From a virus (taxonomy: Duplodnaviria > Heunggongvirae > Uroviricota > Caudoviricetes), in the IMG/VR virus record IMGVR_UViG_2908959467_000004: a stretch of 42,273 nucleotides of DNA; one strand, 5' to 3'. Below the pieces are notes generated by a model, which ran no database searches, was not told where the DNA came from, and saw only the letters and a program-made list of their open reading frames with translations. The position numbers and the translations under genes are program-made. Below, piece by piece: positions 26,441 to 40,207 of this stretch; positions within the stretch are counted from its first letter, which is position 1; each line of letters begins with the position of its first letter.

Positions 26441-28595
26441 AAATTCGAGTCATTTTTCCGTCAACACGACGTTGAACACGCTTATACCCGCAATTTTGCA
26501 AAACATTACTAATTCGCATTTCTTCGCGTTTTCCGATGCGGTCAGGATTTAGCCCAATCGCATCACGCAAAACATCACTTGCGCGTAAAAATTCGCAATT
26601 TCGCGGAAGTTCATTAGTCATCAGGTCGGGCGTGTCGAGCCATTTCTCTACCGTTTCAAGCCAAGCATCCTTGATGGTGTACTGTTCATGGACACTCGCT
26701 GCCAGTTGTTCAGCCTCACGGAACTGGATACCCCCCAGACGCTGAAACACCTCACGAGCCTCAGCCCAAAGTAAAAGGAGATCTCTTTTTATCGCTTTCA
26801 CGTCGACTTTCGACACTTCCACGGGGAGCCAGCGACGGTTACCAGTCTTGTCCGCAAGGAATTCGTCCTCATTGGTGGTACCAACGAACACCAGGCGACG
26901 AGGAAACTGGGTGGCGAACTCCCGGTATTTCGGGATCCAGTTTTCGTGAGTACGCGTCACAAACGCTTTGATTGACTCCAGCTCTTTGGTATTAAGTCCG
27001 CGCAGTTCACCAATCTCTGCCACCAGCCGACCACGCATTTTTCGAGCGAGATCATCGTCTTTTTCGGCAAAAGAGATTTCAGTAAAAAACGCAGGATCAG
27101 GGCTCAGTGCCTCCACTCCGGAAGACTTACCGCAGCCCTGCGGACCAACGAGGATCGGCACCATATCCGCTTTGATGCCTGGCTCCAGTACTCGCCCCGC
27201 CAACGCGGTCCACATGTACATAGACACCGCACGGGTATAAGGCGTGTCGGCGGTACCGAAGTGCGTATGGTAGAAACATTCGATGCGCGGCACGCCATCC
27301 CACTCCAGTCCGTTCAGCCAGGTGATCGCTGAATCGAATGGTTGTTCATCGGCTGCAAGTAACACCACATCGCGAATAAGTTCACGACCAACAGGTTTAA
27401 ATCCCCGCTTTTCCATCGTGATGCGCAGGCGCGCATAATCCGCATCGGTGAATGCCCGCCATTGTCCGGATCCTGCAGGGGCAAACATGATTTCGTCGCG
27501 GAACTGGTCAAAGCGAATATCGATGTCCACAAAATCAGGGCGTACTACTGCTTTGGCTGCGTTGCTGATGGTTGCCTCGATACGCCCCCATTTATCACGC
27601 TCGAAAGCAGGCAGCGGTAAAGGTTCCGCCACTTCGGTGCTGGTCAGATCTTCGAAATCGTCGTTGCGGATCCCGATGGCATTAAGGAAATCTCCGTCAT
27701 CACGATGCGCACAACTGGCATGCAGGCATTTAAAATGCCCCTGCTCAAAGCCCGCGGTTCCCGCAGGAAAATAAACTGTGCTTGTTGGATCGCCCCCGCT
27801 ACTGTGGCCGTCTTCAAACGGACAGCGGATATATCGTTCACCATTTGCGCCATCCAGCAGCGTCCAGCCATTGGCATCAAGATATTCAGCTGTATCATCC
27901 GTCGCGCCGGGCGTGAATGCTGATCGGTCGCGCATCTTCGTGTTGCCCGCTTCGGTGGTTACCGACACAGGGAGTTGTTCAGCCAGGCGCTGCCACAGCG
28001 TTTCAAGCTGCTCACCAGTAATAGCCGGAGGTTCATCCGGCAAACCGCCGTCCCATTCAATACGCGCGCCGCTGCTGTGCGTACCGCAGGCAACGAACTG
28101 CTGCCCGTTCGCCAGCAACTCGATAATGCCCATATCCCCCGCCAGGCGATGGATACGCTTACGGAAATCACCATCAACGGCCAGCAGATACAGACACTTA
28201 TTACTGTTTGCTCGCCAGCGTCGCGGCGGCAACTCCCCCAGAAGTTGCACAAGCGTTTTGCGAATATCTGCCTGAATGTCTTCATCTTCGCTATCGCAGT
28301 CCAGCGCCAGCCAGCCATGGCCTGTACGCACGCAGATGCCATAATCCGGTTCATTCGACCAGCGGGCAAAATCATGCTCAGTAACAACATGCCCAGTCCA
28401 TTGAGCAATACCGGTGACCTGGCGGTCCCGGTTATAGCGACTCGGCGTCTTACCCAACGCTTTCAGTTTACTATCAGGGGATATGGTCGCACTGGGGTTA
28501 CATACAACTGGGAGAAGATGATCAGTTCTCCCCAATACCAGGTCGAAATGAAACCACTCATCAGGCGTAGCTCCCCATGGTTTGCTATCGGACAT
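26403..28595 (-). CDS. replicative primase-helicase (P4 alpha/D5-like, with primase-polymerase-like N-terminus)
   Basis: 730 aa; Walker A LVGPQGCGKSS in the C-terminal half; Cys/His cluster CPFEDGHSSGG...HFKCLHASCAH; first large gene of the Cro-side operon. Confidence 0.8.
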   Translation of the reverse strand: MSDSKPWGATPDEWFHFDLVLGRTDHLLPVVCNPSATISPDSKLKALGKTPSRYNRDRQVTGIAQWTGHVVTEHDFARWSNEPDYGICVRTGHGWLALDCDSEDEDIQADIRKTLVQLLGELPPRRWRANSNKCLYLLAVDGDFRKRIHRLAGDMGIIELLANGQQFVACGTHSSGARIEWDGGLPDEPPAITGEQLETLWQRLAEQLPVSVTTEAGNTKMRDRSAFTPGATDDTAEYLDANGWTLLDGANGERYIRCPFEDGHSSGGDPTSTVYFPAGTAGFEQGHFKCLHASCAHRDDGDFLNAIGIRNDDFEDLTSTEVAEPLPLPAFERDKWGRIEATISNAAKAVVRPDFVDIDIRFDQFRDEIMFAPAGSGQWRAFTDADYARLRITMEKRGFKPVGRELIRDVVLLAADEQPFDSAITWLNGLEWDGVPRIECFYHTHFGTADTPYTRAVSMYMWTALAGRVLEPGIKADMVPILVGPQGCGKSSGVEALSPDPAFFTEISFAEKDDDLARKMRGRLVAEIGELRGLNTKELESIKAFVTRTHENWIPKYREFATQFPRRLVFVGTTNEDEFLADKTGNRRWLPVEVSKVDVKAIKRDLLLLWAEAREVFQRLGGIQFREAEQLAASVHEQYTIKDAWLETVEKWLDTPDLMTNELPRNCEFLRASDVLRDAIGLNPDRIGKREEMRISNVLQNCGYKRVQRRVDGKMTRIFEAVSQPVPASK

Positions 28596-28598
28596 GGG

Positions 28599-28811
28599 TT
28601 AAGCCTTTTTATCGTTTTGTGAGCCATACAACAGCCAATTAGGGTCGCAATCCAATGCTATAGACATTTCAAGAAGATAACGTGGCCGAGCAATAACACC
28701 ACTTTCAATTCTGTTTATTGCCTGCTGGCTCACTCCTGTGAGCTCAGCCAACGTAACTTGCGTCATTTTGAGTTCTTTACGTCGTTCTTTTACTCGGGTC
28801 GCTAAGGTCAT
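28599..28811 (-). CDS. Cro-like HTH repressor (XRE family)
   Basis: 70 aa from ATG at 28811 (SD GAGGTG); HTH MTQVTLAELTGVSQQAINRIESG; divergent from the CI-like gene and first in the lytic operon. Confidence 0.7.
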   Translation of the reverse strand: MTLATRVKERRKELKMTQVTLAELTGVSQQAINRIESGVIARPRYLLEMSIALDCDPNWLLYGSQNDKKA

Positions 28812-28838
28812 TGCTTTCACCTCATACAATTTTAGTGG

Positions 28839-28868
28839 TATTTAGCAACAACAAACGAGGTTTGTCAA
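28839..28868 (-). promoter_or_regulatory. pR-like promoter with overlapping operator
   Basis: Minus strand -35 TTGACA (28868-28863), 18-bp spacer, -10 TAAATA (28844-28839); inverted repeat GTATTTAGCAA/TTGTCAAATAC (28838-28872) overlaps both hexamers. Confidence 0.5.
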
Positions 28869-28880
28869 ATACAACAAAAA

Positions 28881-28909
28881 TTGTTTTTAATGTGGGGATA
28901 CACATTAAT
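28881..28909 (+). promoter_or_regulatory. pRM-like promoter with operator palindrome
   Basis: -35 TTGTTT (28881-28886), 17-bp spacer, -10 ATTAAT (28904-28909); perfect palindrome TTAATGTG-N6-CACATTAA at 28887-28908; ATACAA-N6-TTGTTT at 28869-28886. Confidence 0.4.
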
Positions 28910-28931
28910 ACAACCCAGAAGGACTAATCCC

Positions 28932-29555
28932 ATGTCTCTCGCAGCCCGTTTTAAAGCACGTCGTTTGGAATTAGGAATGACTCAAGTGGAAGTAGCGAAT
29001 TCTGCAGGGGTTAGCCAACAATCCATAGAATCCATCGAAAGTGGACGAACCAGAAAGCCACGCAATCTTCTGGATCTGGCTAAGGCCTTGAAATGTAGCC
29101 CAGACTGGCTACTGAACGGTAAAAATATTATGCCTCTCGCGGAGATAAGTACCAGACGCATACCTATATTAAGTTACGTTCAGGCAGGAGAGCTTACAGA
29201 AGCAAGAGACATAACAGATCTGACAGGGGAATTTGAATATATTTTGGCAGACTCTGACATTCCAGAAACATGCTTCGCATTACGTATCGATGGCGACAGC
29301 ATGCAACCAGAGTTTAAAGAAGGAGACATTGTTATCATCGATCCTGATCTATGTCCTGCACCAGGGGAGTTTGTTGTCGCCAAAAACGACGGTCACGAAG
29401 CTACATTTAAAAAATACCGTCCATTAGGAATCGGCATCGACGACTTTGAATTAATCCCCCTAAATCCTGATTACCCTATTTTTCGTAGTGCAGATATGAA
29501 CTTACAGATCATAGGTGTAATGATCGAACACCGTATTTACCGCCGTAAACGTTAG
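28932..29555 (+). CDS. CI-like repressor (HTH plus LexA/S24 peptidase domain)
   Basis: 207 aa from ATG at 28932 (SD AAGGA); HTH MTQVEVANSAGVSQQSIESIESG; S24 motifs GDSMQP and FKKY (Ser/Lys dyad). Confidence 0.8.
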   Translation: MSLAARFKARRLELGMTQVEVANSAGVSQQSIESIESGRTRKPRNLLDLAKALKCSPDWLLNGKNIMPLAEISTRRIPILSYVQAGELTEARDITDLTGEFEYILADSDIPETCFALRIDGDSMQPEFKEGDIVIIDPDLCPAPGEFVVAKNDGHEATFKKYRPLGIGIDDFELIPLNPDYPIFRSADMNLQIIGVMIEHRIYRRKR

Positions 29556-29574
29556 TATTCCCACCGTAAATATC

Positions 29575-29594
29575 GGGAGGCGTAACAGCCTCCC
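29575..29594 (+). terminator. GC-rich hairpin downstream of the CI-like gene (weak terminator candidate)
   Basis: GGGAGGC-GTAACA-GCCTCCC; the following tract is not strongly U-rich. Confidence 0.3.
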
Positions 29595-29682
29595 TTACCC
29601 CATTTGTAAAGTCTTACAAATTAAATTCACTTAAATATCAATAAAGTAGTATTCACACCCCCACAAAATACCACATCTGTGG

Positions 29683-29711
29683 TTTACACAATACAACTCA
29701 AATTGTATCTT
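29683..29711 (+). promoter_or_regulatory. pL-like early promoter with operator
   Basis: -35 TTTACA, 17-bp spacer, -10 TATCTT; palindrome ATACAA-N6-TTGTAT (29691-29708) overlaps it and matches the motif in the Cro/CI intergenic region; further palindrome TTTGTAA-N4-TTACAAA at 29603-29620. Confidence 0.45.
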
Positions 29712-29878
29712 TAGCCACAAGTCGAACGGCGCGACTCTAAACCATGCGTCGGGACCGTGGCGGGACAGGATGTCGGCAATACGGGTCAGTAAGTTCCCTT
29801 TGGGGTGCGGCGAAGCACTGTCTACTGATACAAGTCGAAGCCGCCGAACCACCAAAGTGAACTGAATGAGGAAACGGC

Positions 29879-30073
29879 GTGAAAACGTATAAACCGCTCA
29901 AAGGTGAATGCCCTGCTTGCCAAACACAGCTTCTGACACCAAAGCCAAAACGATACCAAATCAACGAATGTTATGAGCACTGCCCTGGATGTGGTGCTTT
30001 CCTGCATACCATTGCAACGCACTGGCGTGTCCGCTTCAACCTTGTGGTACCACGTACGCACAATACCAACTGA
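29879..30073 (+). CDS. small zinc-ribbon protein (possible regulator)
   Basis: 64 aa; GTG start with SD GAGGAA; two CxxC pairs (CPAC ... CPGC); followed by an intrinsic terminator. Confidence 0.5.
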   Translation: MKTYKPLKGECPACQTQLLTPKPKRYQINECYEHCPGCGAFLHTIATHWRVRFNLVVPRTHNTN

Positions 30074-30104
30074 ATCATCCATGTAATTGCTGTGTGTAGT
30101 CTTT

Positions 30105-30130
30105 GCCCGCCTCAAGTGACGGGCTTTTTT
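30105..30130 (+). terminator. Rho-independent terminator (tL1-like position)
   Basis: GCCCG-loop-CGGGC followed by TTTTTT. Confidence 0.55.
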
Positions 30131-38812: not shown

Positions 38813-40207
38813 ATGCCCAAAGTTTTCACGCCTCGCCCCTACCAAGATCTAATTATCAACCACGAAATCGACATTCACCGCTGCAACATCTGGGCAGGGA
38901 TGGGGATGGGTAAAACCGTAGCGACACTCACCACGCTGGAAGATCTTTTCATGGCGGGCTCAGAGACACAGCCCGCGCTGGTCCTCGCGCCCCTACGCGT
39001 TGCAGCAAGCACATGGCCGGATGAAGCGCTGAAATGGGGGCATCTGCGCAATATCGAGGTGCAGCCGATTGTTGGTAACGCCAAAGCGCGCTCTGCAGCG
39101 CTGGCGAACAGCAACGCGAGCGTGTTCACCATCAACTACGATAACCTTGTCTGGCTGGTTGAGGAATTGGGAGAACGATGGCCGTTCGGTACTGTCATTC
39201 CAGATGAAAGCACCCGGCTAAAATCCTTCCGGCTGCGAGGTGGTGGTAAGCGCGCGGCGGCGCTGGGCAAAGTGGCGCATAAGTATGTCCAGCGCTGGAT
39301 AAATCTCACCGGTACGCCAGCACCGAACGGCCTGGTAGATTTGTGGGGACAATTGTGGTTTGTGGACCAGGGGCAACGTCTCGGGCGCACTTACGGCGCG
39401 TTTACCTCACGCTGGTTCAACTCGATACAGTTTCCGGGGCAGAGCTGGACCAAACTGGAGCCGTTTGCTCACTCACAGGCTGAAATACAGCGAGCGTTAG
39501 CCGATGTGACCCTCTCGCTGGATGCGGCCGACTGGTTCGATATCAAAGACCCCATCCATAACGTAATCCGCGTGGATATGCCGCCGAAGGCCCGTCAGCA
39601 GTATCGTGAAATGGAAAAGGAAATGTTCCTCGAGCTGAATGGCGAAGGCATCGAAGCACCGAACGCCGCGGCAAAGACACTGAAATGTCTGCAAATCGCC
39701 AGTGGCGCAGTATACACAGACGACACCGGAAGTTGGTCAGAACTGCATGACACCAAACTACAAGCGCTGGACAGCATACTGACCGAAGCAGCTGGCGCAC
39801 CTGTGCTGGTTGCTTATCACTGGAAACACGATCTTGAACGCTTGCTTAAAGCATTCCCTCGCGGTCGTCACCTCGACCAGGATCCACAGACACTGCGCGA
39901 CTGGAATTCCGGAAAGATTCCTGTTCTCTTTGCACACCCAGCCAGCGCGGGCCACGGCCTGAACATGCAGGACGGCGGAAACATACTGGTGTTTTTCTCG
40001 CACTGGTGGGATCTGGAGCAGTACCAACAAATTATCGAACGCATCGGGCCAACCCGGCAGATTCAGGCCGGACACAACCGCCCGGTGTTCATTCACCACA
40101 TTATCGCCGCCGACACTATGGACGAAATGGTGATGGAGCGGCGCAACTCAAAACGAACAGTGCAGGACATCCTGCTCGATGCCATGAAAAAGAGAGGTAT
40201 AGCATGA
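38813..40207 (+). CDS. SNF2/DEAD-like helicase
   Basis: 464 aa; PYQ motif, Walker A GMGKT, DExx box IPDEST; C-terminal helicase domain. Confidence 0.8.
   Translation: MPKVFTPRPYQDLIINHEIDIHRCNIWAGMGMGKTVATLTTLEDLFMAGSETQPALVLAPLRVAASTWPDEALKWGHLRNIEVQPIVGNAKARSAALANSNASVFTINYDNLVWLVEELGERWPFGTVIPDESTRLKSFRLRGGGKRAAALGKVAHKYVQRWINLTGTPAPNGLVDLWGQLWFVDQGQRLGRTYGAFTSRWFNSIQFPGQSWTKLEPFAHSQAEIQRALADVTLSLDAADWFDIKDPIHNVIRVDMPPKARQQYREMEKEMFLELNGEGIEAPNAAAKTLKCLQIASGAVYTDDTGSWSELHDTKLQALDSILTEAAGAPVLVAYHWKHDLERLLKAFPRGRHLDQDPQTLRDWNSGKIPVLFAHPASAGHGLNMQDGGNILVFFSHWWDLEQYQQIIERIGPTRQIQAGHNRPVFIHHIIAADTMDEMVMERRNSKRTVQDILLDAMKKRGIA

Follow-up and report, generated by a model that had tools for sequence, protein, structure and literature searches.

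A phage 434-type repressor and operator module probably joined to an HK022-type promoter and put RNA in the immunity region of an Escherichia coli prophage

What kind of switch governs the two early operons that flank the cI-like gene of the viral record IMGVR_UViG_2908959467_000004 (Caudoviricetes), and how would transcription of the left operon proceed beyond its first terminator? The whole stretch of 42,273 nucleotides is referred to here as the window, and all positions are counted from its first letter. An original prediction made from the letters alone had described a lambda-like immunity region with one operator motif shared by both early promoters. The comparisons presented below point, very probably, to the immunity switch of an E. 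coli prophage in which a CI, Cro and operator module of the phage 434 type is combined with a module of the phage HK022 type, consisting of the left early promoter (PL) and a put antiterminator RNA.

As in phage 434, the two regulatory genes are divergent, and the gap of about 120 bp from which they had been said to diverge measures exactly 120 bp (28812-28931):

28599-28811, minus strand: cro-like gene, 70 aa, helix-turn-helix (HTH) domain only; ATG at 28811, GAGGTG Shine-Dalgarno sequence
28932-29555, plus strand: cI-like repressor gene, 207 aa, 434-like HTH domain and S24 self-cleaving domain

The Cro-like protein matched Pfam HTH_3 (1.7e-14), the CI-like protein matched both HTH_3 (1.1e-12) and Peptidase_S24 (1.8e-21), and PHROGs assigned both to transcriptional repressor families. 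Among all solved structures (PDB), the top match of the CI N-terminal domain was the 434 repressor (E = 5.9e-16; 52% identity over 62 residues) and that of the Cro-like protein was 434 Cro (E = 1.9e-19; 55% identity), although identity to the 434 repressor over the whole of CI was only 38%. The window CI and Cro shared 57% identity with each other over the HTH domain. Their recognition helices (SQQSIES in CI, SQQAINR in Cro) both open with the Gln-Gln pair found in the 434 repressor (TQQSIEQ) and 434 Cro (KQQSIQL), corresponding to Gln28-Gln29 in CI, and differ from them at residue 33, which is Ser in the window CI and Arg in the window Cro but Gln and Leu, respectively, in 434. Arg43 was kept in both proteins, as was the Arg of KPR in CI. 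Structural work on 434 has placed Gln28 and Gln29 in contact with the first bases of the ACAA half-site. CI also possessed the motifs of a self-cleaving repressor, namely Ala85-Gly86 (VQAGE), GDSM at 121 (Ser123) and FKK at 159 (Lys160); cleavage at Ala85-Gly86 through Ser123 and Lys160 is thus predicted, and the switch is most likely bistable, in the manner of 434, and inducible.

The shared operator motif was recovered by a search of the whole window. With at most one mismatch, the 18-bp palindrome ATACAA-N6-TTGTAT had only three matches in 42 kb (0.10 expected; none of 100 shuffles reached three), all of them at the two promoter regions flanking cI:

28824-28841: 18-bp motif, ATACAATTTTAGTGGTAT, one mismatch
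28869-28886: 18-bp motif, ATACAACAAAAATTGTTT, one mismatch
29691-29708: 18-bp motif, ATACAACTCAAATTGTAT, no mismatch

The several palindromes noticed earlier between cI and cro were likewise borne out by inverted-repeat analysis. Comparison with phage 434 suggests that the functional operator core would be the 14-bp site ACAA-N6-TTGT contained in this palindrome, which corrects the 18-bp reading. It is hardly credible that the motif recurs by chance in AT-rich intergenic DNA and marks no repressor site at all. The intergenic DNA is indeed 64% A+T and the 14-bp core on its own occurs at chance frequency window-wide, but the excess of the 18-bp form, the identity of the operator geometry with that of phage 434, and the family-wide tracking of the half-site with the recognition helix (see below) all argue for a repressor site. 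The significance of the motif is accordingly drawn from its 18-bp form, from the homology to 434 and from the placement of both exact cores in the two intergenic regions flanking cI, which make up some 440 bp of the 42 kb.

Three sites of this kind make up the right operator (OR) between cro and cI, around the right early promoter (PR) and the promoter of cI (PRM):

28826-28839, no strand assigned: OR1, ACAATTTTAGTGGT, half-sites ACAA/ACCA, overlapping the end of the PR -10 and the start site
28848-28861, no strand assigned: OR2, ACAACAAACGAGGT, half-sites ACAA/ACCT with two mismatches, a weak middle site abutting the PRM -35
28871-28884, no strand assigned: OR3, ACAACAAAAATTGT, perfect core within the PRM spacer, one of the two exact cores in the window

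OR1 stands at the position of 434 OR1 in a 14-8-14-9-14 layout, and OR2, overlooked in the original prediction, has the spacing of its 434 counterpart, exactly 8 bp to OR1 and 9 bp to OR3. Read directly from phage 434 DNA, OR consists of ACAAACTTTCTTGT, 8 bp, ACAATGTATCTTGT, TTGTCAAAT and ACAGTTTTTCTTGT, and three further ACAA-N6-TTGT sites are found in the left operator (OL) of that phage. On this comparison the window OR is a site-for-site copy of the 434 OR (14-8-14-TTGTCAAAT-14), including the spacer TTGTCAAAT that holds the overlapping -35 elements of PR and PRM. The two differ in that OR3 is perfect and OR2 the poorest site in the window, and in that an ACCA half-site variant recurs there, in the right half of OR1 and in both halves of OL2 (see below), with ACCT at OR2. 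The palindrome ACAAAC-GAG-GTTTGT (28851-28865) was considered as the middle operator and rejected, its 7-bp spacing being unfit, while the 434 register at 28848-28861 preserves both spacers. As a separate observation, OR (28826-28884) is nearly mirror-symmetric about OR2, its 23-nt arms (28826-28848 and 28862-28884) showing 83% complementarity, so that the OR1 side looks like the OR3 side copied in inverted orientation.

The likeness to lambda that had been proposed for this region stands for the general logic of the switch. As in lambda, two operator-controlled early promoters flank the repressor gene, cI is co-directional with PL, cro is the first gene of the PR arm, the repressor carries an S24 self-cleaving domain, and a Q protein serves the late genes. 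In its proteins, its 14-bp sites and its OR layout, however, the region is closest to phage 434, whereas lambda has 17-bp operators of another sequence, PR and PRM -35 regions that do not overlap, N and nut, and cII, cIII and the promoter PRE. The split of lytic functions between the two arms, which had been presented as a departure from lambda, does not distinguish the two, as lambda splits them likewise.

Conservation of the operators was followed through a search with the CI protein (one genome per species), which gave 34 loci; the region upstream of cI was tabulated for 22 loci, among them 434 and three isolated phages. The layout 14-8(9)-14-9-14 around TTGTCAA(A/T)T was seen in nearly all 22, and the spacer between OR2 and OR3 read TTGTCAAAT in 434 and in about 14 of the 22, with near-identical versions in the others. 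All tabulated sites start with ACA and all repressors possess the QQ pair, while the fourth base of the half-site is A in the group of the window and in 434 but G in the groups with QQSW-S and QQSIEA helices; across the family, as far as these sequences tell, the half-site tracks the recognition helix. The isolated phages with the closest CIs (CobraSix, ST16-OXA48phi5.2 and YenM_29.18; 57-60% identity) illustrate this: regions of the CobraSix type and many enterobacterial prophages have the OR layout of the window together with the TTGTCAA(A/T)T spacer, but their half-sites are ACAG/CTGT, with a QQSW-S helix in place of the QQSIES of the window.

Three relatives with the same helix carry ACAA/TTGT sites in register, and are designated here by their locus handles L112 (CI identity 93%), L014 (78%) and L021 (71%). 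In these, OR1 and OR3 were conserved or perfect, with a perfect ACAA/TTGT core at OR3 in all three and an identical OR1 in L112, and OR2 was the most variable site, its counterpart in L112 being ACAACTAATGATGT (one mismatch). In L112, the relative with the 93%-identical CI, OR1, OR3, OL1 and OL2 were retained while the flanks drifted, and divergence was strong beyond the hexamer that follows OR3 with the operators unchanged.

Within OR, the following promoter elements were recognized:

28868..28863, minus strand: PR -35, TTGACA
28844..28839, minus strand: PR -10, TAAATA, 18-bp spacer, with an upstream TGc that makes an extended -10 (region 28839..28848)
28845..28840, minus strand: alternative PR -10, CTAAAT, 17-bp spacer, aligning with GAAAAT of 434
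28862..28868, both strands: overlapping back-to-back -35 elements, PR TTGACA (28868..28863, minus) and PRM TTGTCA (28862-28867, plus), inside the spacer TTGTCAAAT
28886-28891, plus strand: likely PRM -10, TTTAAT, 18-bp spacer from TTGTCA
28881..28909, plus strand: cI promoter of the original prediction, TTGTTT (28881-28886) and ATTAAT (28904-28909), 17-bp spacer

The promoter TTGACA/TAAATA toward cro was found on the minus strand where it had been placed, with a predicted start near 28832, and OR2 lies over its spacer and touches its -35. According to a title cited in PMC4848623, use of PR and PRM in phage 434 is mutually exclusive, and the overlap of the two -35 elements in the window fits that report.

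For cI, the hexamers TTGTTT and ATTAAT proposed earlier are present with their 17-bp spacer, but they are probably not PRM, which is more probably TTGTCA/TTTAAT, with OR3 in its spacer and OR2 against its -35. The TTGTCA position recurs in 434 and over 20 relatives, and directly after OR3 there is in 434 a -10-like hexamer of the pattern xAxxAT (GAAGAT), as there is in most relatives (GAGGAT, GAATAT, AATCAT etc.), with TTGTCA 17 bp upstream; the TTTAAT of the window was kept in L112 and L014 and appears as TTAAAT in L021. In lambda and 434, the activating repressor sits at the OR2 position beside the PRM -35. The PRM of 434 is placed here with the help of the sequence comparison.

Transcription of cI from TTGTTT/ATTAAT, in which case OR3 would overlap the -35 and OR2 would lie near -61 with the switch otherwise unchanged, is clearly the less probable arrangement but still a serious one. 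Beside the two hexamers and their spacing, it draws on a CATAAT in L112 at nearly the place equivalent to ATTAAT and on a perfect 8-bp inverted repeat (TTAATGTG/CACATTAA) that brackets the region. Against this, CATAAT in L112 lies only 15-16 bp from its -35, L014, L021 and 434 lack any counterpart of TTGTTT/ATTAAT, and TTGTCA with a -10 directly past OR3 was kept over the 22 loci of the table, a -10-like hexamer being present there in most of them; moreover, it is TTGTCA/TTTAAT that would put OR2 at the position of the activating repressor in lambda and 434. The inverted repeat itself (TTAATGTG-N6-CACATTAA, 28887-28908) begins just past OR3, overlaps both candidate cI promoters and is not found in L112. 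A reading of it as a CRP-like site was rejected, as its spacing is TGTG-N6-CACA and not N8, and as the repeat is missing from L112.

Downstream of cI, a second set of operators surrounds the promoter of the left operon:

29575-29594, plus strand: post-cI hairpin GGGAGGC/GCCTCCC, -16.1 kcal/mol, z = -3.6, probable end of the PRM transcript
29616-29629, no strand assigned: candidate OL3, ACAAATTAAATTCA, two mismatches, 40 bp from OL2, unlike 434
29670-29683, no strand assigned: OL2, ACCACATCTGTGGT, half-sites ACCA/ACCA with two symmetric mismatches, abutting the PL -35
29683-29711, plus strand: PL, with -35 TTTACA (29683-29688), 17-bp spacer and -10 TATCTT (29706-29711), from a promoter scan
29693-29706, no strand assigned: OL1, ACAACTCAAATTGT, perfect core, filling the PL spacer and touching the -10

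PL was the only promoter-like site that the scan detected between cI and the next operon. The shared motif had been said to overlap a second early promoter (TTTACA/TATCTT) downstream of cI, and it does so with its mismatch-free copy (29691-29708); the promoter itself is corroborated by its column-for-column alignment with the annotated HK022 pL, in which the -35 TTTACA is identical and the -10 (CATCAT) occupies the same columns (O276 and HK022 records). OL1, kept in relatives, occupies the place of the HK022 operator within the same promoter, and the position upstream of the -35 that corresponds to OL2, also overlooked before, is an annotated operator in HK022; the operators at the window promoter are nonetheless of the 434 type. 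The gap of 9 bp between OL2 and OL1 is that between two of the 434 OL sites, but only two OL sites are clear in the window. OL1 and OL2 were both kept in L112, L068 and L097, and the -10 varies from TATCTT in the window to TAGATT or TAGAGT in relatives, with T1, A2 and T6 constant. The block of candidate OL3 was kept in L112 and L068, with ACCA as its left half there, and the stem of the post-cI hairpin was kept with different bases in the same two loci. Between this hairpin and OL, a perfect 8-bp inverted repeat (ATTTGTAA-N4-TTACAAAT, 29602-29621) was observed, loosely kept in L112 and L068, whose half-sites are operator halves facing outward (TTGT...ACAA).

Whether the weaker sites belong to the switch bears on how it would work. 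On one alternative, only OR1, OR3 and OL1 are real operators, OR2 and OL2 are left unbound by CI, and the switch has two sites at OR without cooperative filling of OR1 and OR2. The two core mismatches in each of OR2 and OL2 and the poor conservation of OR2 among relatives are in line with this, as is the non-cooperative binding of some lambdoid repressors, e.g. that of 933W (PMC5977221). We consider it unlikely, since OR2 and OL2 lie exactly at the 434 spacings (8 and 9 bp), and at least 6 of 8 core matches are expected at a pre-set position with a probability of only 0.008 in DNA of such composition. In addition, the deviating half-sites reuse ACCA three times and ACCT once, OL2 was kept in L112 and L068, and in 434 and lambda, too, OR2 is as a rule intrinsically weak (PMC5977221, Table 1). 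The three-site OR of the 434 type, with OL1 and OL2 at PL, is thus the arrangement retained here.

The second component of the switch, at the start of the left transcript, had been overlooked in the original prediction:

29718-29788, plus strand: put-type antiterminator RNA, 71 nt, at the 5' end of the PL transcript

By sensitive blastn, positions 29707-29791 showed about 79% identity to putL of HK022, HK75 and O276, and matched several Salmonella and Erwinia phages as well. The element begins 7-9 nt past the PL -10, which would correspond to about +1 to +3 of the transcript. Its fold was assessed with the base pairs and numbering of the HK022 cryo-EM structure (PMC9378689), and the 5' duplex, stem I and stem II with its internal loop were all present. 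Residues critical in HK022 putL include A8, A9, U28, G35, G43, G45 and A64 (Hwang et al. 2022, PMC9378689). The window RNA keeps the equivalents of all seven, and in the alignment the columns of A8, A9, G35, G43, G45, A64 and the CAAU block are invariant, U28 being present in the row of the window. Relative to HK022 putL, the changes in paired regions are compensatory (A5-U17 to U-A, G38-C70 to C-G, and C41-G66 to U-A), and stem II has one pair fewer at its tip. Over 28 put sequences, the 23 cryo-EM pairs were paired in 95.4% of cases and ten of them change on both sides, whereas slid partners reached at most 43%. Folding of the single sequence was uninformative (z = +0.6); the real fold has a pseudoknot-like 5' duplex, and covariation was therefore used.

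Put RNAs of this type are widespread and appear portable. When viral contigs were scanned with a simple pattern, at least 120 stretches matched (IMG/VR loci L043-L162); about 35 distinct genuine put RNAs were counted among the matches listed, with many divergent putL/putR pairs 1.2-2.5 kb apart (e.g. L046, L052, L059, L060). The 28 sequences assessed above are among these, and a covariance model was built on their alignment. With this model, a put was also found after cI in CobraSix, L017 and L019. The same 71 nt occur in 11 of the loci retrieved, behind different operators, and an identical put follows three operator types in other phages, which points to a portable module with its joint to the immunity genes at the -10. 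The search of Rfam with E up to 10 gave no family for the window put. A weak put-like match at 39319-39381 (plus strand; 13.9 bits, E = 0.23), which starts with ACCGAACGGCCTGGTA like putR, falls within the SNF2 helicase gene and was discounted as probably due to chance.

Between put and the left operon, three further features follow on the plus strand:

29792-29863, plus strand: leader hairpin, -29.9 kcal/mol, z = -2.7, between put and the first ribosome-binding site
29879-30073, plus strand: ORF64, 64 aa with CxxC...CxxC, GTG start past GAGGAA, not annotated in RefSeq
30085-30130, plus strand: intrinsic terminator, stem 30105-30124 and U6 30125-30130, -9.8 kcal/mol, the first terminator past put

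The terminator hairpin and U6 run lie 316 nt downstream of put. Of the first ORFs after PL, neither ORF64 nor a 49-aa ORF gave a match to the N family of arginine-rich proteins in Pfam or PHROGs. We regard it as very unlikely that put is an inherited relic without antitermination, the left operon being transcribed by leakage through a weak terminator or from another promoter. The terminator is admittedly modest (-9.8 kcal/mol, z = -1.1), and the heteroimmune relative vB_EcoM-606R2 has the same terminator and operon with no put found at E up to 1. A relic would not be expected to preserve structure to the degree seen here, however, with all HK022-critical residues kept, every difference in the paired regions compensatory (U5-A17, C38-G70, U41-A66), and the same 71 nt in 11 loci behind different operators. 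A functional put, antiterminating the PL transcript as in HK022, is therefore the reading that we prefer.

Several results weigh against the combined 434-type and HK022-type switch. Concerning the operators, the 14-bp core ACAA-N6-TTGT was not enriched window-wide (two exact copies against 0.92 expected; 19 copies with at most one mismatch against 19.1 expected). OR2 has two mismatches and can be read in three overlapping registers, including the ACAAAC-GAG-GTTTGT palindrome with 7-bp spacing, and the existence of a third OL site is doubtful. The best consensus site is OR3 and not OR1 in the window, L014 and L021, which reverses the affinity order of 434 and lambda if consensus match predicts CI affinity; in Stx phages, a strong OR3 is associated with low repressor levels and easy induction (PMC5977221). 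Concerning the transcripts, the post-cI hairpin at which we infer that the PRM transcript ends has no U-tract, so that PRM transcripts could reach PL and put. The cro gene is not followed by one resembling cII, as the primase-helicase ORF begins 4 nt past the cro stop (28595-28601), which leaves a gap in the account of how lysogeny would be established. Finally, the covariance model gave a single significant put copy in the window, whose score of 80.2 bits is not independent as the window sequence was in the training set, and no putR was detected on the right arm when the whole window was scanned with filters off, while HK022 has put on both arms, a feature of that phage that does not itself define put.

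With these points taken into account, the following course of events would fit the region. In the lysogen, CI dimers would bind the 14-bp ACAA-N6-TTGT operators. Occupation of OR1 and the weak OR2 would shut PR, and with it cro, the primase-helicase, Q and the late genes, while OL1 in the promoter spacer and OL2 against the -35 would shut PL. Bound at OR2, against the PRM -35 TTGTCA, CI could stimulate its own synthesis, and OR3 in the PRM spacer may serve auto-repression by CI or shut-off by Cro. The overlapping -35 elements of PR and PRM would allow only one of the two to be occupied at a time. Upon DNA damage, CI would cleave itself at Ala85-Gly86 (Ser123, Lys160) and both promoters would fire. 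By homology with HK022, the put RNA would then fold on the nascent transcript and bind the zinc-binding domain of its own polymerase, conferring resistance to pausing and termination. The modified polymerase would pass the RprA-like terminator (30105-30130) into the operon for the DNA polymerase and recombination, and an N-like protein would be unneeded. The right arm would do without put, with Q acting for the late genes; no terminator that would demand antitermination on this arm was found on the minus strand between primase and Q.

The resulting combination resembles both parental types and departs from each. Compared with 434, the window lacks a rex-like or hex-like gene after cI and a cII gene after cro, and put replaces N on the left arm. 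A cII-like gene after cro is present in the nearest isolated relatives, CobraSix, ST16-OXA48phi5.2 and YenM_29.18. With the pL-putL of HK022, the window shares the -35 TTTACA, the -10 register, the two-arm fold with its 5' duplex and the critical residues, as well as a small accessory ORF and a terminator after put; the accessory gene is nun in HK022, and the zinc-ribbon-like ORF of the window is unrelated to Nun.

The surrounding genes place the switch in a prophage. A region of about 2 kb around it matched the chromosome of E. coli BH100N at 99.8% identity, and full-length matches of at least 99% identity were found in 42 complete E. coli genomes; the prophage occurs in dozens of E. coli strains of clinical and bovine origin. 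In the RefSeq annotation of BH100N, the locus is a prophage adjoining yfhL. On one side it has tail, head, terminase and lysis genes, a Q-family antiterminator, a VapE-type primase-helicase and a small HTH gene, and on the other a LexA-family gene followed by an operon with DUF2800, DUF2815, DNA polymerase, VRR-NUC, methyltransferases, SNF2 helicase and integrase. Isolated relatives of the prophage carry myovirus names (vB_EcoM), and its replication relies on a DNA polymerase A module; it is not lambdoid. Against phages, megablast detected no relative of the immunity region itself, relatives being found only with a distant-mode search. DNA homology to the heteroimmune vB_EcoM-606R2 ends near 28609 and restarts near 30077, and the swappable module would consequently comprise cro, OR, cI, OL, PL, put and the small ORF.

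The region may thus be viewed as a natural example of modular phage regulation, with a 434-type repressor and its operators, an HK022-type promoter and put, and a variable slot for a small gene, joined precisely at the PL -10 and at the RprA-like terminator. It presents well-known machinery in a new mosaic and no new mechanism, and extends the 434 operator layout and the put RNA to many uncharacterised enterobacterial prophages. Predictions that follow concern the base contacts of CI and Cro, immunity to 434-type phages, and the opening of the left operon by put alone.

The variable slot and its boundaries showed further features. The leader hairpin, which recalls the RNase III hairpin of the lambda N leader, was found with substitutions in L053, L081, L118 and L143. 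ORF64 gave weak zinc-ribbon matches, all below threshold, and it occupies a slot behind a conserved ribosome-binding site that in other loci with this leader holds unrelated small ORFs, of 34 aa in L053 and in L068 and of some 70 aa in L118; in HK022, nun stands at this position.

The terminator region (30085-30130) matched the last 46 nt of rprA, a small RNA (sRNA) gene of the host present in essentially every E. coli genome, at 84.8% identity. A single-stranded stretch of 24 nt in it (ATTGCTGTGTGTAGTCTTTGCCC) is invariant and the terminator stem is compensated. The Rfam model of RprA (RF00034) scored 49.7 bits against a gathering score of 70, with only the 3' ~50 nt aligning well; with the 5' half of RprA absent, the region was rejected as a full member of the family and represents a partial look-alike. 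Natural processing of RprA yields an active form made up of its last 47 nt (PMC9262595). RprA itself has a promoter under Rcs control, while the window element lies inside a phage operon. Homology between heteroimmune relatives restarts at this RprA-like terminator. In vB_EcoM-606R2 (L002, 4270-6114), the RprA-like terminator and the left operon are kept, put is absent, and two minus-strand genes lie between repressor and terminator. A speculative reading, to which we give little credence, is that the terminator is a deliberate copy of the active 3' part of RprA, that transcripts ending there in the lysogen or early in induction release an Hfq-binding RprA-like RNA, and that the same block marks the junction at which immunity modules are swapped. 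If so, such an RNA could mimic or compete with the host RprA, coupling the prophage to the Rcs/RpoS stress network.

At gathering thresholds, Rfam gave no match in the window. Far from the immunity region, two matches below threshold were observed on the minus strand, one to IS009 at 1857-2055 (94.9 bits against 117, E = 1.4e-20) and one to CssrB at 1023-1079 (33.5 bits).

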